DNA from: an uncultured Oscillospiraceae bacterium
GTDB taxonomy: Bacteria; Bacillota; Clostridia; Oscillospirales; Ruminococcaceae
Direction of reading: 5' to 3'
Length of the DNA: 64,000 bases
Assembly (NCBI GenBank): GCA_934526065.1
Contig: CAKSZX010000001.1
Location: forward strand, 269,594 to 333,593
A program made the position numbers and the translations under genes. Shown piece by piece: positions 15,001 to 25,381 of this stretch; within the stretch, counting starts at the first letter, position 1; every line of letters starts with the position of its first letter. The notes beneath the pieces were generated by a model. It saw nothing but the letters and a program-made list of their open reading frames with translations. It was not told the DNA's origin and did not search any database.

Positions 15001-16719
15001 TTATTTGCTTGCCAAGGCATTTACAGCCCGTTTTGCCGCCGCCGCAGCGTCGGCGGTGTAAATGTCCGCACCGATTTCATCGCAGTATTCCTGGGTTATA
15101 GGGGCGCCGCCAATCATAATTTTAACTTTATCTCTAATGCCTTTTTCTTTTGCAAGGGCAACAACTTTTTTCATTTCGTCCATTGTGGTGGTAAGCAGGG
15201 CGGAACAGCAAATAATATCGCAGTTTTCATTTATGGCGGTATCAACAAATGTTTCGGCGCTTACATCTGTGCCAAGGTCGATAACCGTCAAACCGCTGCC
15301 CTCCATCATAATTTTAACAAGGTTCTTGCCTATGTCGTGCATATCGCCTTTTACGGTGCCCATGCAAACTTTGCCGGCGGATTTACTCTCGCCTTTAACA
15401 AGCAAAGGCTTTAAAATTTCCGTTGCGGCGGTCATACATCTGGCGGCCATAAGCATCTCCGGCACAAAAACCTTGTTTGCGGAAAAATCGTTGCCAAGGC
15501 TTACCATACCGGCAACAAGGCCCTTTTGCAGTATTGTTTGCCGGTCGATATTTTCTTCTATGGCTTGGTTGCACAGCTTTAAAACACGGTTTTTCTGCCC
15601 TTTTTTAAGGGCGGCGGCAAGCTGAGTGAGGGTGTCGCCGGTTTCGCTTTCTCCGGCGACGGAGATTTCTTTTTTAACAACTGTCTTTTCCGCTTTAATG
15701 CGCCTGTGTTCTTCTTTTCTGAAATTCGGCGCATGGAGAACCCGGTTGTACCTGTCTATTTCATCATCTATAATCGGGTCAACCTGTTTGTAAACCGTGC
15801 CGGGCAATCCGTAGGTAATACATGGGATAAAATGACCCATTGGGCAATCCGCCCAAAGAACCTCTTTCATATACCGGCGGATTTCTTCCTCGGCGGCGTC
15901 GGCTCTGTCAATGCTTGCGCCCACTCCGCCCATTAAGGTAAGCTTGCCGTCCAGATGTGCCAAAAGCCGTGGAATATTATTTTCCGGCAGAACGCCCTGC
16001 CAAATCTGTATGCCTATTTCCGCCATATCGTCAACGATAGGGGCACAGTAAGAGTCCGCATGGTGGGCGGCTATCACCCCTTGCGAGCGAATATAACCGT
16101 AAAATTTCCTGTAAGGCTCTTTGAAAAATTCACGCCACATATCCTCTTTCATAAACAAGGCATCCTTTGCACCCCAGTCATCGTGAGAAAGTATTAAATC
16201 CGGGTGCAGGTTGTCTATAACAGTCTTTGCGTAGCTCATTCTGTACCGCAAAATGTAGTCGATAAGCCGGTGCATTTCCCGGGGGTGTTCGTAAAGGTTT
16301 GTCAAGGTGTCCTCAAAACCCATTAAAAAATGCAGTTGTTCAAATATGCCGGTGCCCATAACAACCGAAACCAATTTGCCCTCTTTGCGTATTTCCTCCC
16401 CTTTGGCAAGGCTTTCTTCCCAGCCTGTTTGGCAGTTTGCGGCAATGTCCGGGGCGTGTACCGTCTCTTTCCACTTTGTTATATCTTTCAAGGCCTTGTT
16501 TTCGGCTGTGATATGGGGCATTCTGCCCGGGGCGTCCTCCGGGTAAATAAATGTAACCCCGAATTTATCAACGGCAGTGCCGCCTTTTTTCAGCCCTATA
16601 TCCAAAAATTTACTTACGGGGGTGCCGTAAACAAAGCCCATTGCCTCATATTGTTTAAGCTGTCTTTCCGGCTTGCCGTCTTTTTTTATTGTTTCTCTCA
16701 ATATTTGTGCAGGTGTCAT
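15001..16719 (-). CDS. CmuA-like fusion: URO-D/MtaA-family methyltransferase domain plus B12-binding cap and cobalamin-binding domain
   Basis: 572 aa. The C-terminal ~200 aa carry the B12-binding_2 helical cap and DxHxxG (GDMHDIGKNLV), SALLTTT and MIGGAP motifs of a corrinoid Rossmann domain. The N-terminal ~340 aa is a TIM-barrel-like uroporphyrinogen-decarboxylase/MtaA-type methyltransferase with His/Cys-rich candidate Zn sites (HHADSYC, CPMGHFIPC). Confidence 0.65.
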   Translation of the reverse strand: MTPAQILRETIKKDGKPERQLKQYEAMGFVYGTPVSKFLDIGLKKGGTAVDKFGVTFIYPEDAPGRMPHITAENKALKDITKWKETVHAPDIAANCQTGWEESLAKGEEIRKEGKLVSVVMGTGIFEQLHFLMGFEDTLTNLYEHPREMHRLIDYILRYRMSYAKTVIDNLHPDLILSHDDWGAKDALFMKEDMWREFFKEPYRKFYGYIRSQGVIAAHHADSYCAPIVDDMAEIGIQIWQGVLPENNIPRLLAHLDGKLTLMGGVGASIDRADAAEEEIRRYMKEVLWADCPMGHFIPCITYGLPGTVYKQVDPIIDDEIDRYNRVLHAPNFRKEEHRRIKAEKTVVKKEISVAGESETGDTLTQLAAALKKGQKNRVLKLCNQAIEENIDRQTILQKGLVAGMVSLGNDFSANKVFVPEMLMAARCMTAATEILKPLLVKGESKSAGKVCMGTVKGDMHDIGKNLVKIMMEGSGLTVIDLGTDVSAETFVDTAINENCDIICCSALLTTTMDEMKKVVALAKEKGIRDKVKIMIGGAPITQEYCDEIGADIYTADAAAAAKRAVNALASK

Positions 16720-16729
16720 TTTAAATTCC

Positions 16730-17182
16730 TCACTTTACCAAAATACAGGCGGTAAAAGTCATTGTTTTTACCCCATAGTTATATTTAAGCCCATTTTTAA
16801 GGCATACATCTCCCACAAGCAGACCGTAGGCTTCCATAGACGGGAAAACTTTGCCGGGGAAACGACATGGTTTTGACGGATATGTGCATTTTTTGCATCT
16901 TGTACAGCCGCCGGCACCCATAGGCAGAATATCGCCGTAAATGCGCTTGGCTTGCCTTACAAGGGTGTCAAACCTCGATTTGTGTTTTGCCTCACAGCGC
17001 CTTATGGTTTCAAGGTCAAATTCATCATCCATTACCTCAACGGTTTGCACAACTATGCCGCCGCTGTAAGCCGCAGCTCTTTTGCTTATGTTTTCAAGGC
17101 TGCCTACCGCCGGGGGACAAGCCCAACTTCTGCCGTATTTGACGCACTTATCAGCCGAACACATATCCCTTACTTCCTGCAT
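16730..17182 (-). CDS. DUF2284-family predicted metal-binding protein
   Basis: 150 aa with the WACPP motif and a Cys cluster (GGCTRCKKCTYPSKPCRFP); immediately upstream of the methyltransferase-corrinoid gene on the same strand. Confidence 0.5.
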   Translation of the reverse strand: MQEVRDMCSADKCVKYGRSWACPPAVGSLENISKRAAAYSGGIVVQTVEVMDDEFDLETIRRCEAKHKSRFDTLVRQAKRIYGDILPMGAGGCTRCKKCTYPSKPCRFPGKVFPSMEAYGLLVGDVCLKNGLKYNYGVKTMTFTACILVK

Positions 17183-17347
17183 AAAAACAAGTGTATTTGT
17201 ATCCAGCGGAGCATAATGTTCAAAGCCTATTTCCCGGGCAAGTTCGTATATTTTTTCGGTAATTGTTCTTCACCGCCTTGACAAGGCGCAACCGCCTCGT
17301 GTATATTTAAAACATATTTTAGCTTATTATACGAAAGGCAAAAAATA

Positions 17348-18889
17348 ATGTCAAGAGCGGATATAGTTTACAGAGGAAAAACAATCGTCGTGTCTGCAAA
17401 AGAAGGTCGGAGTGTTTTGAAAATTTTGCAAGATCGGGGAATAAATATTCAAGCGCCTTGCGGCGGCAGAGGCACCTGCGGCAAATGTGCCGTTACTGTG
17501 GTGCAAAACGGCATGAGGAAAACCGTCTTGGCTTGCCAAACAAAAATTTTTGGTGATTGTACCGTTGAGGTGCCGGATTTTGTCGGCGGTAAAATAGAGG
17601 ATGAAATATCCGGCAATTTATTATTTCAACCCCAAAAAGGTTACGGTGTGGCCGTTGACATAGGAACAACATCAATTTCTTTGGCGGTGTATAATCTGGA
17701 AAACGGCCGGCTTGTAGGTAAAAATTCACGGTGGAACAGGCAAACCGCTTACGGTGGGGATGTTATTACAAGAATTAAATACACCATGGATAACCCTAAT
17801 GGGCTTGAAAGACTGACAACACTTGTGCAAAAGCAGATTTTTGATATGTCGGCGGAAATTTTGGATAAAAACAAAATTTCACATGATGATGTAACAAGCC
17901 TTGTGATAGCCGGTAACACTGTTATGGAACATATTTTTTCCGGGCTTGATCCCCGGTCTATGGCGGCAGCCCCCTATAAGCCGAAAACCCTGTTCCAAAC
18001 CGGCGAAAACATAACCTATTCGGAATTTAAAAATGCAAAAGTTTTTATTTTTCCCTGTGTGTCCGCCTTTGTGGGCGGCGATATAACAAGCGGTATTTAC
18101 ACTTTGGAAATTGCCGAAAGCCGTGTAAAAACCCTGTTTATAGACATAGGTACAAACGGCGAGATGGCATTGTGGAACGGCGAAAAATTTATATGCTGTT
18201 CTACCGCCACAGGCCCCGCTTTTGAAGGAGCCGGTATCGTTTGCGGTATGCCCGGTGTTGACGGCGCAATTTGCAAAGTAAAAATAAATGGGCCAGAGCT
18301 TGCCTTTGACACCGTGAACGGGAAGAATGCCGTTGGAATATGCGGTTCCGGCACCGTTGATGTAATCGCCCGGCTGCTGGAAAACGGAGTTATCGACTAT
18401 GGGGGAAGAATGTTAAACCCCCAAGAAGTTGAAAACCCGGTAAAAAAATATATGGGCGAGGACGAAAATGAAAACGGAATATTCTATCTTACCGAAGATA
18501 AAAAAGTGTTCTTCACTCGGGAAGATGTGAGAAAAATTCAACTTGCCAAAGCGGCAGTGGCAGCCGGAATAAAAACAGTTGTAAACAGCGCAAAACTCGG
18601 TTATAATGACATAGACAAGGTTATCATATCCGGGGGTTTCGGCAAAAATTTAAGTACCGAAAGCCTTTGCCGAATAGGTATGATACCGGCGGAATTTGCC
18701 GATAAAACACAGTACGCCGGCAACACGGCATTAAGCGGAGCGGCAAAAACTTTACTTTATCCCGGTAATAGACCGGAAGTAGGCAAGATAAAAAATATGT
18801 GCGAATATATCGAGTTATCCCAAAGTAAAGAATTTACGGAGGATTACATAGAGCAAATGGTATTTGAAAACAGCGAGGTGGATTTATAA
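17348..18889 (+). CDS. Corrinoid reductive activase (RACo type): N-terminal plant-type 2Fe-2S ferredoxin plus ASKHA/DUF4445 ATPase domain
   Basis: 513 aa. CGGRGTCGKCAV...C ferredoxin motif, then an acetate/sugar-kinase-Hsp70-actin-fold region (VDIGTTSISLAV..., FIDIGTNGEMAL). A TTGACA-18-TATATT promoter lies upstream. Confidence 0.75.
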   Translation: MSRADIVYRGKTIVVSAKEGRSVLKILQDRGINIQAPCGGRGTCGKCAVTVVQNGMRKTVLACQTKIFGDCTVEVPDFVGGKIEDEISGNLLFQPQKGYGVAVDIGTTSISLAVYNLENGRLVGKNSRWNRQTAYGGDVITRIKYTMDNPNGLERLTTLVQKQIFDMSAEILDKNKISHDDVTSLVIAGNTVMEHIFSGLDPRSMAAAPYKPKTLFQTGENITYSEFKNAKVFIFPCVSAFVGGDITSGIYTLEIAESRVKTLFIDIGTNGEMALWNGEKFICCSTATGPAFEGAGIVCGMPGVDGAICKVKINGPELAFDTVNGKNAVGICGSGTVDVIARLLENGVIDYGGRMLNPQEVENPVKKYMGEDENENGIFYLTEDKKVFFTREDVRKIQLAKAAVAAGIKTVVNSAKLGYNDIDKVIISGGFGKNLSTESLCRIGMIPAEFADKTQYAGNTALSGAAKTLLYPGNRPEVGKIKNMCEYIELSQSKEFTEDYIEQMVFENSEVDL

Positions 18890-20106
18890 TGGAATTACAT
18901 TACCCTTTGATATTGGACGGTTCAACCGGTACTCAACTGCAAAAAAGAGGCTATGACGGCGGCGTTTGTGCCGAGGCATGGTCGATAGATCACCCGGAGG
19001 TTGTACAGGATTTTCAAAAGGAATATTTACAGGCCGGCTCACAGGTTTTGTATTCCCCTACATTCGGTGCAAACAGGGTAAAACTTGAAGAAAACGGCAT
19101 TTTCAACAAAGTGTATGACTTTAACTATAAACTTGCCTCAATAAGCAAAAAAATTGCACAGGACAAAGCCTATGTTGCCGGGGATATTGCCCCAACCGGC
19201 AAATTTTTGGCTCCTTTGGGGGACACGCCCTTTGAAGAAATGGTTGAAATATACACCGAACAGGCCAAGGGCTTACAGGACGCCGGTGTTGACTTTTTTA
19301 TCATCGAAACAATGATGACTGTGCCGGAGGCCAGAGCCGCATTATTGGCTGTAAAAAGCGTAAGCGACAAACCTGTTTTCGTCACATTTTCGGTAGATGA
19401 AAAGGGCAATACCCTTACCGGCTCCGACATAGAGGCTGTTTTGGAGATTATGCAGGGCATGGGTGCCGACGCATTCGGCCTTAACTGTTCCGTAGGCCCT
19501 AAGGAAATGTTGGAATCTATAAAACGCCTTACAGACTATGCGGAAGTTCCTCTTATCGCAAAGGCAAATGCCGGCCTGCCCAAAGTTGTTGACGGTAAAA
19601 CCGTGTACGACTGCCCGCCGGAAACCTTTGCCGACTGTGTGCCGGGGCTTGCCCGGGCAGGGGTGCAGATATTCGGCGGTTGTTGCGGCACAATGGCAGA
19701 GCATGTAAAGGCCATAGCCGACGCCGTAAAAAATGTAAAACTTGTAAATCCCAACCCGAAATATACCGATTTACTTCCTCTTTGCACTGAAAAGAAGCTG
19801 TTTCTGTTGCCGAAAGATGTAAAACCCGGCAAGATTTTGCCATGTGATGAAAATTTGGGCGAGGCTTTGGAGGAAGCGGAAACAGACGATGAAAAGTTGA
19901 TCACAGTCCAAATACGCAGAGAGGACGAACTTGATAATTTTGCGGATTATCAATATGCAATATATAAGCCCCTTTGTCTTATGTGCGAGGACGAGAGTAT
20001 TCTTGAACAAGCGTTAAGGCTGTACCAAGGCAGGGCAATGTATGACGGCAATCTGCCGGAAGATTTCTTGCGGAAAATGGCAAAAAAATACGGTTTGATT
20101 TATTAA
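18889..20106 (+). CDS. Homocysteine S-methyltransferase-domain protein (MetH N-terminal Hcy-binding-domain homologue) with ~110-aa unknown C-terminal extension
   Basis: 405 aa. ILDGSTGTQLQ, TFGAN, GLNCSVGP and GGCCGT motifs contain the three Zn-ligand cysteines of the Pfam S-methyl_trans/MetH Hcy-binding barrel. Start overlaps the RACo stop (ATAATGG). Confidence 0.75.
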   Translation: MELHYPLILDGSTGTQLQKRGYDGGVCAEAWSIDHPEVVQDFQKEYLQAGSQVLYSPTFGANRVKLEENGIFNKVYDFNYKLASISKKIAQDKAYVAGDIAPTGKFLAPLGDTPFEEMVEIYTEQAKGLQDAGVDFFIIETMMTVPEARAALLAVKSVSDKPVFVTFSVDEKGNTLTGSDIEAVLEIMQGMGADAFGLNCSVGPKEMLESIKRLTDYAEVPLIAKANAGLPKVVDGKTVYDCPPETFADCVPGLARAGVQIFGGCCGTMAEHVKAIADAVKNVKLVNPNPKYTDLLPLCTEKKLFLLPKDVKPGKILPCDENLGEALEEAETDDEKLITVQIRREDELDNFADYQYAIYKPLCLMCEDESILEQALRLYQGRAMYDGNLPEDFLRKMAKKYGLIY

Positions 20107-20154: not shown

Positions 20155-20706
20155 TTGATATGTGAGGATTTTGACGACAACTTTTTTAACCGCAGGGTTG
20201 CGGCAAAAAAGCTGTTCAAACGGTACAACAAAACCGAGGACGAGGACACCGAGAAAATAGCCGAGATAATGAATAAGCTCTTTAAAAAAGTAGGCAAAAA
20301 TGTTTGGATAGAGCCGGATTTTCACTGCGAATCCGGCAAAAATATTGAGATAGAGGATGATGTTTACATAAACTTCGGCTGTATAATTCTCGACTGCGCC
20401 CGGTTTACAATCGGCAGAAATACATTGTTGGGGCCAAATATAGGTATTTATCGGGTAAACCACTCTCTTGATCGGGCGGAAAGAATAACCGGCGGCTGTA
20501 TTGGCAAACCCGTGCATATAGGTAAAAATGTGTGGCTCGGCGGAGATGTTAAAATTTTGGCCGGGGTTACGATCGGAGACGGCAGCGTTATCGGCGCAGG
20601 CAGTGTTGTTACAAAAGATATACCCCGGGGCGTAGTCGCCGCAGGCAATCCGTGCAAGGTATTGCGTAAAATAGACGAAAGAGATAAACTCGGGTACTTA
20701 AAATAA
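20155..20706 (+). CDS. Maltose/galactoside O-acetyltransferase-family hexapeptide-repeat acetyltransferase
   Basis: 183 aa; Maa-type N-terminal helix (NKLFKKVGKNVWIEPDFHC) and left-handed beta-helix repeats (IGKNVWLGGDVKILAGVTIGDGSVIGAGSVV). TTG start; no upstream ATG before the stop. Confidence 0.7.
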   Translation: MICEDFDDNFFNRRVAAKKLFKRYNKTEDEDTEKIAEIMNKLFKKVGKNVWIEPDFHCESGKNIEIEDDVYINFGCIILDCARFTIGRNTLLGPNIGIYRVNHSLDRAERITGGCIGKPVHIGKNVWLGGDVKILAGVTIGDGSVIGAGSVVTKDIPRGVVAAGNPCKVLRKIDERDKLGYLK

Positions 20707-20765
20707 AATAAAATAAAAAACAAACAGCTATTTATATTCGGCGAGTATAAATAGCTGTTATTAGT

Positions 20766-21092
20766 TTATTCCGCACTGTTTTTGTAATCCGTGCCCCATT
20801 TTTCCATGGCATCCAAAATCGGGCGCATTGATTCACCCAAAGGGGAAAGAGCATACTCTACTTTCGGCGGAACTTGCGGATAGACGGTTCTTGTTATTAT
20901 ACCGTCGTTCTCCATAGAGCGCAAACTGTCGGTTAAAACTTTTTGACTTATTCCCACAAGGTCTTTTTGTAACTCGTTAAAACGCCATGGGCGCTGAAAA
21001 AGGTTTCTCATAATCAGCAATTTCCATTTACTGCCTATAAGCTGTACCGTTGTGGCAACCGGGCAAGCAGGCAGTTCTTCTTTTTTAAGCAT
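20766..21092 (-). CDS. HxlR-family (MarR-like winged-helix) transcriptional regulator
   Basis: 108 aa; CPVATTVQLIGSKWKLLIMRNL...RFNELQKDLVGISQKVLTDSLRSMENDGII is the HxlR signature. Confidence 0.8.
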   Translation of the reverse strand: MLKKEELPACPVATTVQLIGSKWKLLIMRNLFQRPWRFNELQKDLVGISQKVLTDSLRSMENDGIITRTVYPQVPPKVEYALSPLGESMRPILDAMEKWGTDYKNSAE

Positions 21093-21227
21093 ATTACAAT
21101 CTCCTTTAATGTAACATCATTTATTACTGTTACATTTGATTTTAATGTATTGACACCGAAAAGTAAATAGAATAATCGTCTGTTACACATAAAGTTCACA
21201 TGGGTTACTTTTCGGTAACTATATAAT

Positions 21228-21244
21228 AAAAAAGTGCGTACTTG
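21228..21244. promoter_or_regulatory. Conserved 17-mer AAAAAAGTGCGTACTTG (copy 1) overlapping the -35 region of the lipoprotein-gene promoter
   Basis: Exact 17/17 repeat of the motif at 22291-22307. The near-palindromic core AAGTGC/GTACTT is followed by a 17-nt spacer and a TATAAT box. Confidence 0.35.
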
Positions 21245-21313
21245 TTTTCGACTGTAAAAAATTTTATAATAAAGTCGTTGAACACAAAAATAAACTTTTA
21301 AAGGAGTATCACT

Positions 21314-22243
21314 ATGAAAAAGATATTTGCAATTTTACTTTCCGCACTTGTTTTGGCCGGCGGGTTTACAGCTTGTTCAAACAGCGAGGGCGTTTCATCT
21401 TCACAATCCGATACGGCGTCTGTTGCGTCTGAAAATCAAACTTCAAAGCCTGTTGTAACAGCCGGAGAAATAGAAAAAGGCAGTGTTACGGTATATGACT
21501 ACGGAAATGTTAAATTGCACGCAGTTGCAACGGAGGACGCCTTAGGCGACGAGTATTATATCGTAGAGGGAGAAAATTCCCTTATCGGCATTGAATTGCC
21601 CAGCTTTACAGATGATTTGGAAGCTATGAAAAATTATATCGAAAAACTCGATAAACCTGTCGAAGGGTTCTTTATATGCGACCACCCGGCGGGCAAGAGT
21701 TATATTGACGGTGTAAAAATCTACGGCACCGACGGCGCTAAAAAATCTATCGAAAGCGGTTCTACATTCGCCACAACAGACGGTTTGTACCAAACTTTCG
21801 GCGATGATTTCCACGGCGGAGATGACATGGCCGATATAAATACCGTGGTATCCGGTTCGGTTACAATAGACGGTATTGAGTTTAATCTTATCGACAGGGG
21901 CGAAACTTATGACCTTGAAATTCCGTCAATGAATGTTGTTTACACTCATATGCTGGGCAAAACAAGCCATTCTATTCTTCTCAGCGTTGAACGGATGGAC
22001 AATATGGTTAAAGTGTTAAATGAATATCAAAGTACAGGCTACGATATGATACTTTCCGCCCACAGCACACCGGAAGGTCAGGATGCTGTAACCGAGAAAA
22101 TAGCCTATGTTGAAAAGACCAAAGAATTGGCTGAGGAAAGCACAACCGCCGATGAATTTATTCGGGCTATGAAAGAGGCATTCCCGGATTACACAGGTGA
22201 AAATTATCTTGAAATGAGCGCAAGCGCATTATATGCAGAATAA
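21314..22243 (+). CDS. Hypothetical secreted lipoprotein
   Basis: Lipobox signal (LAGGFTAC); 309 aa; no confident family assignment. Confidence 0.5.
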   Translation: MKKIFAILLSALVLAGGFTACSNSEGVSSSQSDTASVASENQTSKPVVTAGEIEKGSVTVYDYGNVKLHAVATEDALGDEYYIVEGENSLIGIELPSFTDDLEAMKNYIEKLDKPVEGFFICDHPAGKSYIDGVKIYGTDGAKKSIESGSTFATTDGLYQTFGDDFHGGDDMADINTVVSGSVTIDGIEFNLIDRGETYDLEIPSMNVVYTHMLGKTSHSILLSVERMDNMVKVLNEYQSTGYDMILSAHSTPEGQDAVTEKIAYVEKTKELAEESTTADEFIRAMKEAFPDYTGENYLEMSASALYAE

Positions 22244-22290
22244 TATGTAAAACGGGCGGGCATTTAAGCCCGCTCGATTTCATAGGTTAC

Positions 22291-22307
22291 AAAAAAGTGC
22301 GTACTTG
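22291..22307. promoter_or_regulatory. Conserved 17-mer AAAAAAGTGCGTACTTG (copy 2) overlapping the -35 of the macro/SirTM promoter
   Basis: Identical to 21228-21244; followed by TTGCCA-16-TAAAAT promoter-like elements; a GCGGGC/GCCCGC terminator hairpin lies just upstream. Confidence 0.35.
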
Positions 22308-22354
22308 CCATAAAATCACAGCGTGGTAAAATAAAGTAAAAGGCGGTGAAAATT

Positions 22355-23131
22355 ATGACCCAAAGCGAGAGAAGAATATTTCTTATACAAGAACTGTTAA
22401 AGGAAAGACACAGCGAGGACATTGAAATCCCAAAAGACAGTACAAACCAAAAAAGACTGCTGAGGGCGCTGTTTAATGTGCGCCCGCCCATACCTGCAAA
22501 AGAAGAATTTTTAAAAATACAAAATAGGTATTTGCAGGAGGCAACAAGAGAAAAAGGTATAGCGGATTATAAAAATTTAACCCAGATTGCCAAAGAAATT
22601 TACCTTTGGCAAGGGAATATAACGCGGCTTAAATGCGACTGCATAGTAAATGCCGCCAACAGCCGGCTTTTAGGGTGCTTCCACCCAAATCACGGCTGTA
22701 TAGACAACGCAATACACACATATGCCGGGGTGCAGTTGCGCCTTGTCTGTAACGAAATTATGGAAAAGCAGGGCAAGGAAGAAATGCCCGGCAGGGCCAA
22801 AATCACACCGGCGTTTAATCTGCCAAGTAAATATGTAATCCACACGGTGGGGCCTATTGTAAGCGTAAAATTGCAACCTGACGATTGCCGTCTTTTAAAA
22901 TCGTGCTATAATTCATGCTTAGATGTTGCCCGGGAAAATGGGCTTAAAAGTATAGCTTTTTGTTGTATATCAACAGGGGAATTTCATTTCCCCAATGAAA
23001 GGGCGGCAGAAATCGCCGTTGAGACGGTAAAGGAATATAAATTGAAAAATCACAGTGAAATCGAGGTGATATTTAATGTTTTTAAAGACGCAGACAGAGA
23101 AATATACGAGAGAATATTATCAAAATATTGA
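22355..23131 (+). CDS. Macro-domain protein (ADP-ribose/O-acetyl-ADP-ribose hydrolase family) with ~80-aa N-terminal extension
   Basis: LWQGNITRLKCDCIVNAANSRLLGCFHPNHGCIDNAIH...TGEFHFP are canonical Macro motifs (NAAN...GGG-like...G[IV][YF]G[FY]P-like). Confidence 0.75.
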   Translation: MTQSERRIFLIQELLKERHSEDIEIPKDSTNQKRLLRALFNVRPPIPAKEEFLKIQNRYLQEATREKGIADYKNLTQIAKEIYLWQGNITRLKCDCIVNAANSRLLGCFHPNHGCIDNAIHTYAGVQLRLVCNEIMEKQGKEEMPGRAKITPAFNLPSKYVIHTVGPIVSVKLQPDDCRLLKSCYNSCLDVARENGLKSIAFCCISTGEFHFPNERAAEIAVETVKEYKLKNHSEIEVIFNVFKDADREIYERILSKY

Positions 23132-23948
23132 AAAGCTCAAAAATGCATTGGATGACGCCGACTGTATTGTTATAGGCGCAGGGGCGGGGCTTTCGACTTC
23201 CCGGGGATATGAATACGGCGGAGAGAGATTTAAAAAATATTTTTCCGATTTTGAGGAAAAGTACGGATTTCACGATATGTACTCCGGCGGTTTTTACCCA
23301 TATAAAACCCTTGAAGAATACTGGGCTTATTGGAGCAGATATATTTATGTAAACAGGTATGTACCGGCGCCAAACAACCTTTATGAAAAACTTTTAAATT
23401 TGGTAAACGGCAAAGATTATTTTGTAATAACCACAAATGTTGACCACTGTTTCCAAAAGGCCGGCTTTGATAAAAAACGCCTCTTTTACACTCAGGGTGA
23501 CTACGGGCTTTTTCAATGTCCGACCCCCTGTTGCAGAGAGACTTTTGACAATAAGGACGCCATAACAAAGATGTACTTTGAGCAAAAAGATATGAAAATA
23601 CCGACGGAGTTAATCCCCAAATGTCCCCATTGCGGCAGGCTGCTCACTATGAATTTACGCAGTGACGATAAATTTGTGGAGGACGAGGGCTGGCACAGAC
23701 GGGCAGAAAGGTATCGGAATTTTTTGAGAACAAGAGAAAATCAAAAAATTCTTTTCTTAGAGTTAGGGGTCGGTTACAATACGCCGGTTATTATAAAGTA
23801 TCCATTTTGGCAAATGACGGCGAAAAATCCAAGGGCGACATATGCCTGTGTAAACATGGGGGAGGCCCTATGCCCGAAAGAAATAAGGGAGCAATCTCTG
23901 AGTATTGACGATGATATATATCGTGTTATCTCACTCCTTGAAAAATAA
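23076..23948 (+). CDS. SIR2-family protein, macrodomain-linked class (SirTM-like)
   Basis: GAGAGLS NAD-binding loop, TTNVDH, and zinc-ribbon Cys pairs (CPTPCC...CPHC); overlaps the macro gene by 56 nt, suggesting translational coupling. Confidence 0.7.
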   Translation: MFLKTQTEKYTREYYQNIEKLKNALDDADCIVIGAGAGLSTSRGYEYGGERFKKYFSDFEEKYGFHDMYSGGFYPYKTLEEYWAYWSRYIYVNRYVPAPNNLYEKLLNLVNGKDYFVITTNVDHCFQKAGFDKKRLFYTQGDYGLFQCPTPCCRETFDNKDAITKMYFEQKDMKIPTELIPKCPHCGRLLTMNLRSDDKFVEDEGWHRRAERYRNFLRTRENQKILFLELGVGYNTPVIIKYPFWQMTAKNPRATYACVNMGEALCPKEIREQSLSIDDDIYRVISLLEK

Positions 23949-23986
23949 AAATCCCGAGGGAATTTGCCCTCGGGATAAATTTTTAA

Positions 23987-25381
23987 TTAAAATTCAAGTT
24001 TTTGCAGTTCGTACATACCGCATATTAAAATTTCAAGTGCGTCCATAAGTCCGTCTATGGAAAAACCTTCTTCTGCCATATGCTCTGTACCTATGTAATC
24101 AGGGTTAGGCACATTGCGTGAAACAATGCCGAAAGCTGCACCGGCAGGAAAAGCCCTCCGGTATGTTCCGCCGCCGATAGTGTACGGTTTTTCATCTTTA
24201 CCGGTAAGTTCATTGTAAACGCCTAACAGAGCTTGTATTGCCGGGTGTTCCGGACCTGAGCAAAATGGCGGATTGCCGCTTGCACTCGTAATTCTTCCGC
24301 CTACCGAACTAAGCTTTTCGCAGAGCTGTTTTTCCATCTTTTCAACCGATGTGCTTGTGGGGAAGCGGATATTTATATTTTGGGTGAACACGCCGTTTTC
24401 AAAATCTATAAGACCGCCTATAACCGTAAGGGGGTCAAAAACATCGTCTTTGGCATCAATGCCCAATGTGCTGCCGTCATAATTGTGGTGCATATCCCGG
24501 ATTAGTTCCATATAGGGCTTTTCATCGGCGGTAAAAAGGTTATTTTCAAGGCCGTAGTCCATAATCATGCCTATGGCGCTTACTTTGCCTTGCGGCCGCA
24601 TTGCGTGGCCGCCTATGCCGTGAGCCGTAACCGTTACTGTGTCTCCGTTGTCGGCAATTTCAAAGTTTTCTTTTTCGGGGAAATTGCCTGCGGATTTTTT
24701 AAATTCTGCCCGGGCAAGATCGGATATTACATTGCTTGCCACTCCGGCTTTAAATTTTACCACATTTCCGTTTTCAATCTTTTTACTTGCAAGGCCGAAA
24801 GAGGCAATGCCTTTTTCGCCGCAGCAAACAGGGAAGTCCGCATCCGGAGTAAAAATAAACACCGGCGGTTTTTCTTGTTGTAAGTAGCAGCGCACATCGG
24901 AAGAACCTGTTTCCTCATCACTGCCGAAAATCGCTCTCATGGTATAAGGCAAGTCCAGGTTTTGCTCCTTGAAAAATTTCATCATGTAAGATGTCAAAAC
25001 CGCAGGGCCTTTGTCGTCGCTTACGCCTCGTCCCACAAGGTAACCGTTGATCTCACGAACGGTAAATGGGTCGGCTTTCCAACCGTTGCCCCGTGGCACA
25101 ACATCAACATGGGCGATAGAAGCAAGGTATTTTTCACTTTTGCCGTCTATTTGTGCATAGCCTGTTCTGTTGTCTAAATTTTTCACCGACAAACCGTTTT
25201 TCTTTGAAATTTCAAGAATTTTTTCAAGAGCTTTTTTAGGCCCCCGGCCGTAAGGCGCACCGTCTTCGGGGGTGCCCTGTACGCTGTTTATGCTTACAAG
25301 GTCCTTGATGTCGGCTACTATGTCCTCTTTGTTTTTTTGTACGAAATCTTTTACTTTCCGCTTAAATTCACTGTCAATCAT
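23987..25381 (-). CDS. M20-family dipeptidase (PepV/Sapep-like)
   Basis: 464 aa; HVDVVP...GRGVSDDKGP metal-binding motifs of M20A dipeptidases. Confidence 0.8.
   Translation of the reverse strand: MIDSEFKRKVKDFVQKNKEDIVADIKDLVSINSVQGTPEDGAPYGRGPKKALEKILEISKKNGLSVKNLDNRTGYAQIDGKSEKYLASIAHVDVVPRGNGWKADPFTVREINGYLVGRGVSDDKGPAVLTSYMMKFFKEQNLDLPYTMRAIFGSDEETGSSDVRCYLQQEKPPVFIFTPDADFPVCCGEKGIASFGLASKKIENGNVVKFKAGVASNVISDLARAEFKKSAGNFPEKENFEIADNGDTVTVTAHGIGGHAMRPQGKVSAIGMIMDYGLENNLFTADEKPYMELIRDMHHNYDGSTLGIDAKDDVFDPLTVIGGLIDFENGVFTQNINIRFPTSTSVEKMEKQLCEKLSSVGGRITSASGNPPFCSGPEHPAIQALLGVYNELTGKDEKPYTIGGGTYRRAFPAGAAFGIVSRNVPNPDYIGTEHMAEEGFSIDGLMDALEILICGMYELQKLEF

Follow-up and report, generated by a model that had tools for sequence, protein, structure and literature searches.

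In class-M sirtuins (SirTM) the catalytic HG of sirtuins is changed to QG, and residues N118, Q137 and R192 of the Streptococcus pyogenes enzyme (SpySirTM) are required (Rack 2015, PMC4518038). The sole known substrate of any SirTM is GcvH-L, and the only mapped site is an aspartate, D27 of GcvH-L. Operons of the type that includes GcvH-L and LplA2 are limited to Lactobacillales and Staphylococcaceae, while the hosts of SirTM include Clostridiaceae and Lachnospiraceae (PMC4518038). Lone pairs of SirTM and a zinc-dependent macrodomain (Zn-Macro) have been described, also from Clostridia (PMC4518038; Ariza 2024, PMC11490716). They form one of the three gene arrangements distinguished by Ariza 2024, where it is said that what they modify 'remains elusive' and where Zn-Macros from lone pairs were unable to demodify SpyGcvH-L (PMC11490716). 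The Zn-Macro subfamily was defined in the same work by a Cx4HxC zinc loop, the motifs NAAN and Dx3H, and an N-terminal three-helix bundle. The present analysis concerns a macro-sirTM gene pair lying in a stretch of 64,000 nucleotides (hereafter the window) of contig CAKSZX010000001.1 (assembly GCA_934526065.1) of an uncultured Oscillospiraceae bacterium.

On its sequence the locus is a further member of the described lone SirTM/Zn-Macro class. The reading preferred here, to which a probability of about three in four is assigned, is that of a two-gene lone unit, predicted eraser plus predicted writer, placed under a putative stress operator linked to an HxlR-family regulator and acting on a target other than an operon-encoded GcvH-L. 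The features on which this reading is built are collected in Table 1.

The sirtuin was matched to SpySirTM (PDB 5a3a) with E = 5.5e-68 over residues 10-287, and the only other match among PDB sequences was the fungal macro-SirTM fusion Mfs1 (8rsn). The motifs GAGAG (34-38), TTNVD (119-123) and GVGYNTP (231-237) and the zinc cysteines 148/152/183/186 were located; the SIR2 motifs named in the earlier, sequence-only reading of this DNA are thus present. Q140-G141 (in YTQGDYG) stands in place of the catalytic HG and is aligned with SpySirTM Q137, while N121 (TTNVD) and R195 (NLRSD) correspond to N118 and R192 of the S. pyogenes enzyme, both being at least 90% conserved among 24 diverse homologues. 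The score on Pfam SIR2 was 21.5 bits, below the cut-off of 24, and scores on the CobB models were 19-32 bits against cut-offs of 221-395. None of the three proteins tested with the PADLOC defence models (macro, the sirtuin and a third) was matched. A CobB-type deacylase was rejected on the Gln found for the catalytic His and on CobB scores far below cut-off, and a defence SIR2 was rejected on the lack of a PADLOC match and the housekeeping context. By these signatures the sirtuin is a predicted SirTM-class mono-ADP-ribosyltransferase, neither CobB-type nor defence-type, and the class proposed by the sequence-only reading is upheld.

The macro protein scored 131.9 bits on Pfam PF01661 and 361.9 bits on the NCBIfam equivalog NF003163, 'protein-ADP-ribose hydrolase' (cut-off 272). 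Its best match among PDB sequences was MorMacro of Methanobrevibacter oralis (8rsi, E = 1.2e-79), with SauMacro of S. aureus (5kiv/8rsl, E = 1e-72) and SpyMacro of S. pyogenes (8rsm, E = 1e-62) also matched. NAAN was found at 99-102, the Cx4HxC zinc loop as CFHPNHGC at 108-115 (C108, H113, C115), and the Dx3H dyad as DNAIH at 117-121. For SpyMacro, H117Y has served as an inactive control in published work. An N-terminal extension of about 80 residues aligned, by sequence alignment only, with the three-helix bundle of MorMacro 8rsi from residue 5. The protein is, judged by these motifs, a predicted Zn-dependent MacroD-type macrodomain of the eraser subtype, the role that had been assigned to it earlier.

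Both genes lie on the forward strand and overlap by 56 nt. The identical 290-aa SirTM was found on six independent metagenome contigs, where gene coordinates and overlap were called just as in the open reading frames (ORFs) of the window and in accord with the overlap first noted there; contigs with identical proteins reach 364 kb. The start codon of macro was read as ATG 22355, which is preceded by AAGGCGGTG, or as GTG 22346 (261 aa from the GTG), with the stop at 23131. The 56-nt overlap and the strong ribosome-binding site placed inside macro would couple translation of eraser and writer. A sigma-70-like promoter was read directly before the pair, with a -35 of TTGCCA (22305-22310), a 16-nt spacer and a TG-extended -10 of TAAAAT (22327-22332). 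Upstream of it, the region 22236-22300 folded at -21.9 kcal/mol (z = -5.35 vs shuffles); the U-tract that follows the hairpin is weak, so termination at that point is presumed. The terminator hairpin that ends the unit has a stem of 10 bp with 7 G-C pairs. With its own promoter, the upstream hairpin and the downstream terminator, the pair looks like a separate bicistronic unit.

Table 1. Features of the macro-sirTM locus and its flanks (positions are those of the window).
Feature	Positions	Strand	Remarks
HxlR/DUF24-family winged-helix regulator gene (hxlR), proposed sensor/regulator of the module	20766..21092	-	108 aa; Pfam PF01638, 111 bits
Perfect inverted repeat TGTAACA-N11-TGTTACA	21110..21134	.	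Between the promoter region of hxlR and its start codon, which it immediately precedes; read from sequence
Long form of the element, GTTAC-N5-GGTAAC ... AAAAAAGTGCGTACTT	21204..21270 (element 21204-21246)	+	Predicted to drive the lipoprotein gene
Metallo-β-lactamase (MBL)-fold lipoprotein gene	21314..22243	+	309 aa; signal peptide MKKIFAILLSALVLAGGFTAC; Ser-rich linker
Stable hairpin that follows the stop codon of the lipoprotein gene, probably a terminator between the two units	22244..22284	+	By folding
macro-sirTM promoter with short-form element	22285..22332	+	Sequence reading; short form also in relatives
macro, Zn-dependent MacroD-type macrodomain (predicted eraser)	22355..23131	+	258 aa
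Shine-Dalgarno GAGGTG for sirTM	23063..23068	+	Lies inside macro; spacing to ATG 23076 is 7 nt
sirTM, class-M sirtuin (predicted writer)	23076..23948	+	290 aa
Bidirectional terminator hairpin, end of the macro-sirTM unit	23951..23976	.	Common to the convergent M20 dipeptidase gene
M20 dipeptidase gene	23987..25381	-	Convergent

Homologues of the lipoyl partners were sought with GcvH of E. coli and B. subtilis and LplA of E. coli as seeds, which were confirmed as GCV_H and LplA by Pfam. Against the 303 window ORFs of at least 50 aa, with filters off, no homologue was found (best E = 0.078, 7.5 bits), in accord with the absence of GcvH-L and LplA2 reported by the sequence-only reading; for LplA there was no match at E ≤1 in the window or in the related loci described below. 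Pfam annotations about 8 kb to each side of the pair included no GCV_H, LplA, OYE (PF00724) or LLM (PF00296), and the absence of GcvH and LplA holds over 22 kb upstream and 40 kb downstream. Among the 80 related loci, none carried GcvH or LplA within 7 kb. One marginal GcvH-like ORF was observed in locus L042, 7 kb from the pair. With no GcvH-L, LplA2, OYE or LLM at the locus, the target cannot be an operon-encoded lipoyl carrier. The suggestion that the lack of these partners is unusual did not hold, as lone pairs are a recognized class (PMC11490716) and the partners are likewise absent from the relatives.

The lone pairs of Enterococcus faecalis, Treponema pedis and Methanobrevibacter oralis (PMC4518038, PMC11490716) resemble the window pair in being adjacent and partly overlapping with macro first, in having a QG-type sirtuin and a macrodomain with the Cx4HxC zinc loop, and in lacking GcvH-L and LplA2. 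MorMacro, the nearest structural relative of the window macro protein, is itself a member of a lone pair, and no difference in kind was seen between the window pair and those described. The extended operons of S. aureus (sav0322-0327) and S. pyogenes (spyM50865-50870) have the same writer and eraser families, with the catalytic residues kept; they include GcvH-L, LplA2 and OYE/LLM genes, all of which the window locus lacks. The extended operons of Staphylococcus and Streptococcus share with the clade of the window a tie to flavin oxidoreductases and to oxidative or thiol stress.

Relatives of the sirtuin were numerous. A word-indexed search placed the SirTM family at at least 8000 clusters, HMMER returned 505 clusters of SirTM at 50% identity with E ≤1e-30, and a pattern scan in which each GTDB species was represented by a single genome gave at least 596 confirmed relatives. 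The scan was seeded from a 6-sequence alignment, and the closest 80 of the at least 596 loci were used, so the census given here is limited to one clade. These 80 loci (numbered with the prefix L) have a SirTM 62-73% identical to that of the window and come from Oscillospiraceae, Lachnospiraceae, other Clostridia and Collinsella; together with the window they make 81 sources. ORFs were called in all 81, neighbours were clustered and the recurrent clusters were annotated. Macro was directly upstream of sirTM in 71 of the 81, the ten exceptions being three contig ends and seven genuine cases. The overlap of the two genes was typically 47-86 nt, with the frame relation always the same. Two SirTM genes were observed in the one locus L064. 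The reversed order, SirTM before Macro, was observed in some loci, namely L150, L154, L155, L163 and L087 (P0143).

After macro, the neighbour most conserved in the comparison was a gene for a regulator of the HxlR/DUF24 family. In the window protein Cys10 (in PACPVA) is the conserved N-terminal cysteine of the family, and alignments with its PDB matches, B. subtilis HxlR (7bzd/7bze), HypR (4a5m) and YodB (5hs7), begin at this residue; on NCBIfam redox_TF_RrpB it scored 117 bits, below the cut-off of 175. Where at least 3.5 kb of upstream DNA was available, an hxlR homologue lay within 5.5 kb upstream of the pair in 43 of 59 loci, and in two more it lay directly downstream, against 1 of 53 loci in a downstream control (0.5-6 kb). 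The gene was usually divergent; in seven Collinsella loci it shared the strand of macro and lay 64 nt ahead of it. The perfect inverted repeat just before hxlR is possibly a candidate site for autoregulation, and a partly similar TGTTACA element was found at the same position in L047 and L049.

A conserved element was recognized next to the regulator gene. Its consensus, of about 45 bp, was aGTTAC-N5-GGTaACTa-N4-tAcAAAAAAGTGCGTACTT(g/t), followed about 19 nt on by TATAAT, the final TT(G) being the start of the -35 hexamer. Two copies were found in the window, one before the lipoprotein gene and one before macro, and two copies are also present in L008 and L075. The long form overlaps the -35 (TTGTTT) of the lipoprotein promoter, which has a 17-nt spacer and a -10 of TATAAT. 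The short form, GGTTACAAAAAAGTGCGTACTTG at 22285-22310, overlaps the -35 of the macro promoter and was found directly upstream of macro in L020, L037, L045, L049 and L055; the operator pattern other than the long form read GGTTAC-N6-AGTGCGTACTT. Counting all forms, the element stood immediately before macro or sirTM in the window, L016, L020, L037, L047, L049, L058 and L075. Exact copies of the 13-mer AAAGTGCGTACTT numbered 27 in 0.97 Mb, against an estimated chance expectation of about 0.03 on two strands. Sites with no more than one mismatch from it numbered 37 in the 81 sources, and 37/37 were on the strand facing macro-sirTM. The genes directly after the element vary from locus to locus, and the element is therefore more than conserved orthologous flanking sequence. 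Its form also varied with the regulator: where HxlR scored 168-236 bits against the window protein the consensus form was found, and where it scored 118-132 bits the form was ATAGTtTC-N5-GGTAACTACgGCACAATATTGTGCtTACTTTAC, with a perfect palindrome GCACAAT|ATTGTGC. The region 20500-24200 gave no RNA element in Rfam at E ≤1. An RNA element in the leader was rejected on this result and on the position of the motif upstream of the -10 box, which places its action at the DNA level. We infer that the regulator would control macro-sirTM through the conserved element.

DUF24 regulators such as HypR, YodB, CatR, HxlR and QorR sense disulphide, quinone, hypochlorite or aldehyde stress with an N-terminal cysteine at the start of helix α1, and their targets are nitroreductases, azoreductases, quinone reductases and other flavin reductases (PMC3351151). 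For HypR, the inverted repeat that is bound lies upstream of the promoter of the target, and a second copy is situated downstream of HypR's own promoter (PMC3351151). The B. subtilis regulons HypR-hypO, YodB-azoR1/yodC and HxlR-hxlAB (PMC3351151) resemble the window in pairing a small winged-helix regulator, whose sensing cysteine is N-terminal, with a divergent or adjacent target operon; their targets are nitroreductases or flavin reductases, and an inverted-repeat operator is accompanied by a second site near the start of the regulator, as may be so here. The operator itself differs, being GTTAC-N5-GGTAAC...AAGTGCGTACTT in the window and GTATCAAAATTGATAC for HypR. An ADP-ribosylation writer/eraser pair has not been reported for any DUF24 regulon, and no paper combining HxlR with a macrodomain and a sirtuin was found in the literature searched; nor is there mention there, for lone pairs, of a divergent HxlR regulator, a common operator, or redox or ACGX cargo.

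Such cargo was found between hxlR and macro in the relatives. In 21 loci there was a fusion of a PNPOx-like flavoprotein with a 2x[4Fe-4S] ferredoxin, mostly directly before macro; 20 loci had a radical SAM/SPASM protein and 16 a nitroreductase; a small PNPOx-like protein and a ferredoxin-nitroreductase were each present in five loci, an NAD(P)H-binding reductase in four and a DUF1848 protein in three. The nitroreductases, PNPOx-like flavoproteins and NAD(P)H-binding reductase are typical of DUF24 regulons. The radical SAM protein was assigned to TIGR04340, 'radical SAM/SPASM domain protein, ACGX system' (593 bits, cut-off 400), and a gene for a small ACGX-repeat peptide (TIGR04341, 81-83 bits, cut-off 28) lay directly before this maturase in every locus that had one. 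An example of the peptide is MALSNLFGWEKK...(ACGSACGAGDKPEEKP)n, and an aspartate is conserved in each repeat (ACG[AS][GSA]DK). The peptide accompanied the pair in 22 of the 81 sources, including all Collinsella loci (L012, L014, L021, L022, L024, L031, L033, L040, L042, L043, L053, L056, L059, L062-L064, L067, L070, L071, L074, L078 and L082). In Collinsella the arm with peptide and maturase is divergent from hxlR-macro-sirTM, not co-linear.

A metagenome scan seeded with the maturase (L095-L174) gave SirTM within about 2.5 kb in 47 of the 52 loci with enough downstream DNA; these are close relatives from one clade (83-98% identity), so the 47 are not independent events. Most often the maturase gene was followed by those for the PNPOx-ferredoxin, Macro and SirTM, in that order, and a divergent hxlR stood about 400-500 nt upstream. 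This arrangement of peptide, maturase and flavoenzyme would be a second kind of extended SirTM operon, in the relatives. It differs from the window, where a look through all frames of the 64 kb revealed no ACGX peptide and where homologues of the maturase, nitroreductase and PNPOx were likewise absent. No paper on the ACGX-repeat peptide system, nor any joining SirTM with radical SAM, was found in the literature searched.

The following sequence of events is proposed for the lone unit of the window. Transcription of the pair would start from a sigma-A-type promoter whose -35 is embedded in an operator common to the MBL-fold lipoprotein gene, as comparative genomics suggests, and this operator appears to travel across relatives with a divergent HxlR/DUF24 regulator gene. 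Since DUF24 members sense thiol, quinone, hypochlorite or aldehyde stress, the pair would be switched on by thiol-reactive or oxidative stress, which would parallel the oxidative-stress induction reported for the Staphylococcus and Streptococcus operon. SirTM would, by homology, attach a single ADP-ribose from NAD+ to a specific cytoplasmic protein, and the Zn-Macro would, also by homology, hydrolyse the bond made by SirTM and free the ADP-ribose. The best candidates for the target, in relatives, may be the proteins and peptides encoded by the cargo that separates hxlR from macro.

Several points weigh against this proposal. Function has been assigned wholly by homology or genomic association, and the related loci are largely metagenome-assembled genomes from similar gut habitats and are phylogenetically non-independent. 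Seven loci (L029, L033, L048, L052, L058, L070 and L082) whose SirTM is 64-69% identical to that of the window have no macro gene in the flanks covered, so the eraser is not obligatory. The element overlaps a -35 box and an A-tract, and its conservation could in part reflect promoter strength, not an operator; the Collinsella loci have hxlR directly before macro yet are without the motif. The link to HxlR is limited to the clade of the window (SirTM 62-75% identical): six distant SirTM homologues (no more than 48% identity, mostly on short contigs) were found in other contexts with no HxlR. These were a reversed gene order, nitroreductase-SirTM-Macro; a setting with an AAA ATPase and an Rrf2 regulator; or a sirTM from which macro was missing. 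Several of the macro-less loci were observed to keep hxlR, the operator, and ACGX or nitroreductase genes.

Of the other explanations weighed, the one that has the pair serve a peptide system draws on the cargo of the relatives. SirTM/Zn-Macro would be the distal part of an operon for the peptide, its maturase, a nitroreductase and a PNPOx-ferredoxin. The matured Cys-rich ACGX peptide would play the part of GcvH-L, as a small carrier rich in sulfur that has to be modified first, and be ADP-ribosylated on the aspartate after each ACG, and in the window organism it would be encoded elsewhere under the same operator. In 22 of 81 loci the genes of peptide and maturase do separate hxlR from macro, the maturase-seeded loci mostly carry SirTM nearby, each repeat has a conserved aspartate of the kind modified in GcvH-L, and Zn-Macros also cleave Cys-ADP-ribose. 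This account is nonetheless doubtful for the window: its 64 kb are devoid of peptide, maturase, nitroreductase and PNPOx; co-location speaks for co-regulation and not for a substrate relationship; many loci carry the pair with other cargo (clusters c9, c13, c17 and c27) or with none; and the maturase-seeded loci come from the one clade. A broader statement for the whole clade (gut Clostridia and Collinsella), also rather unlikely on present evidence, would make the lone pair an output of an HxlR/DUF24 stress regulon and its substrate a product of that regulon and not a lipoyl protein, foremost the radical SAM-matured ACGX peptide, in a second modification-dependent ADP-ribosylation circuit parallel to LplA2/GcvH-L that would be completed in trans, by way of the common operator, in the window organism.

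The layout of the pair, with the antidote gene first, a tight overlap and seemingly coupled translation, recalls type II/IV toxin-antitoxin systems, and macrodomain antitoxins such as DarG exist. A DarT/DarG-like module, in which SirTM would arrest growth and macro would be its enzymatic antidote, is still highly unlikely given the seven close SirTM homologues without a nearby macro, the setting of the pair among metabolic and redox genes in operons with a stress regulator, its place on the core chromosome near the dcw cluster, the lack of a PADLOC match, and the high target specificity of characterized SirTMs, which were made recombinantly for assays. Deacetylation of O-acetyl-ADP-ribose by MacroD-type proteins, and a score of the macro protein of 157 bits on the O-acetyl-ADP-ribose deacetylase models (below the cut-off of 200), would suit a conventional sirtuin deacylase whose by-product is cleared by macro. 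That arrangement is hardly probable, as the catalytic His is replaced by Gln140 and the CobB scores are those given above; SpySirTM is without deacylase activity and Q137H abolishes the activity it has (PMC4518038); and macro falls in the zinc-loop subfamily, above the cut-off for protein-ADP-ribose hydrolase. Defence systems commonly have a SIR2 domain as their NADase effector, a possibility also raised by the sequence-only reading, and this general frequency is what favours an anti-phage, NAD+-depleting effector like ThsA, DSR or SIR2-HerA with an accessory macro domain. Such an effector is exceedingly improbable here: none of the three proteins was matched by PADLOC, there is no sensor, HerA, TIR or pAgo partner nearby, the context is a conserved housekeeping and redox operon in hundreds of species, and the PDB sequence matches were to SirTM and Mfs1 only.

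The window itself adds no new kind of system to the lone SirTM/Zn-Macro class; what goes beyond the literature searched is the link to HxlR, the operator and the variable cargo, all of which came from the comparison. Regulator, operator and ACGX cargo narrow a target that had been called unknown to a few testable substrates and inducing conditions, and the candidate partners in relatives are the ACGX peptide, its maturase, the nitroreductase and the PNPOx-ferredoxin. Anaerobes of the human and animal gut have lone pairs in great abundance; such pairs are not chiefly a feature of pathogens, and are far commoner in gut commensals than a 'pathogen' framing implies. A culturable example of a host is Collinsella aerofaciens ATCC 25986 (L063).

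The two flanking genes named in the sequence-only reading, for a lipoprotein and an M20 dipeptidase, are both present; as functional context for the pair they proved of little use, the lipoprotein being exported and the M20 gene convergent beyond the terminator. The lipoprotein has a lipobox and belongs to no Pfam family. The AlphaFold2 (AF2) model of its residues 43-309 (mean predicted local distance difference test score, pLDDT, of 83) has a metallo-β-lactamase fold, and Foldseek matched it to 8d2z (E = 6.6e-11, template modelling (TM) score 0.61) and to chlorothalonil dehalogenase 6uxu (TM 0.64). When the family was searched as a profile against the sequences of the PDB, the sole match was a weak one of glyoxalase type (E = 0.011). 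Homologues detected numbered 228, none with a name; those closest to it are either lipoproteins of comparable size or LysM fusions, which indicates an extracytoplasmic protein. The family occupies the same position in 6 sources, counting the window. Paralogues in L008, L010, L050, L075 and L084 are cytoplasmic, have no signal peptide and keep ESPCF and HDCH, the conserved Cys/His residues of which have been lost from the window lipoprotein; its subfamily has gained a lipoprotein signal, or LysM in others.

As a target of SirTM the lipoprotein was judged unlikely on its signal peptide and lipobox, its lipoprotein and LysM homologues and its MBL fold; an exported protein is a poor candidate for modification by SirTM, a cytoplasmic enzyme that depends on NAD+. 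The common operator before its gene makes co-regulation with macro-sirTM likely, and the gene is likely a co-regulated neighbour outside the macro-sirTM transcript. The M20 dipeptidase was rejected as a partner, its gene being convergent, beyond the terminator and kept in same-species contigs only.

Proteins of DUF5131 and DUF1848 were observed directly beside the pair in a few loci (L058, L040, L042 and L077, cluster c18; L022, L032 and L046, cluster c27). In the window the pair is surrounded by ordinary chromosome of a gut Clostridia bacterium, where uvrC, the dcw cluster and a cluster of corrinoid methyltransferase genes are found, and the base composition at the locus showed nothing unusual. 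The corrinoid-dependent methyltransferase cluster, at 15001-20106 and thus just upstream, encodes a URO-D/B12-binding protein, a DUF2284 protein, a RACo-type reductive activator and a PF02574 (S-methyl_trans) protein; it is kept in same-species contigs only and is probably unrelated to macro-sirTM.

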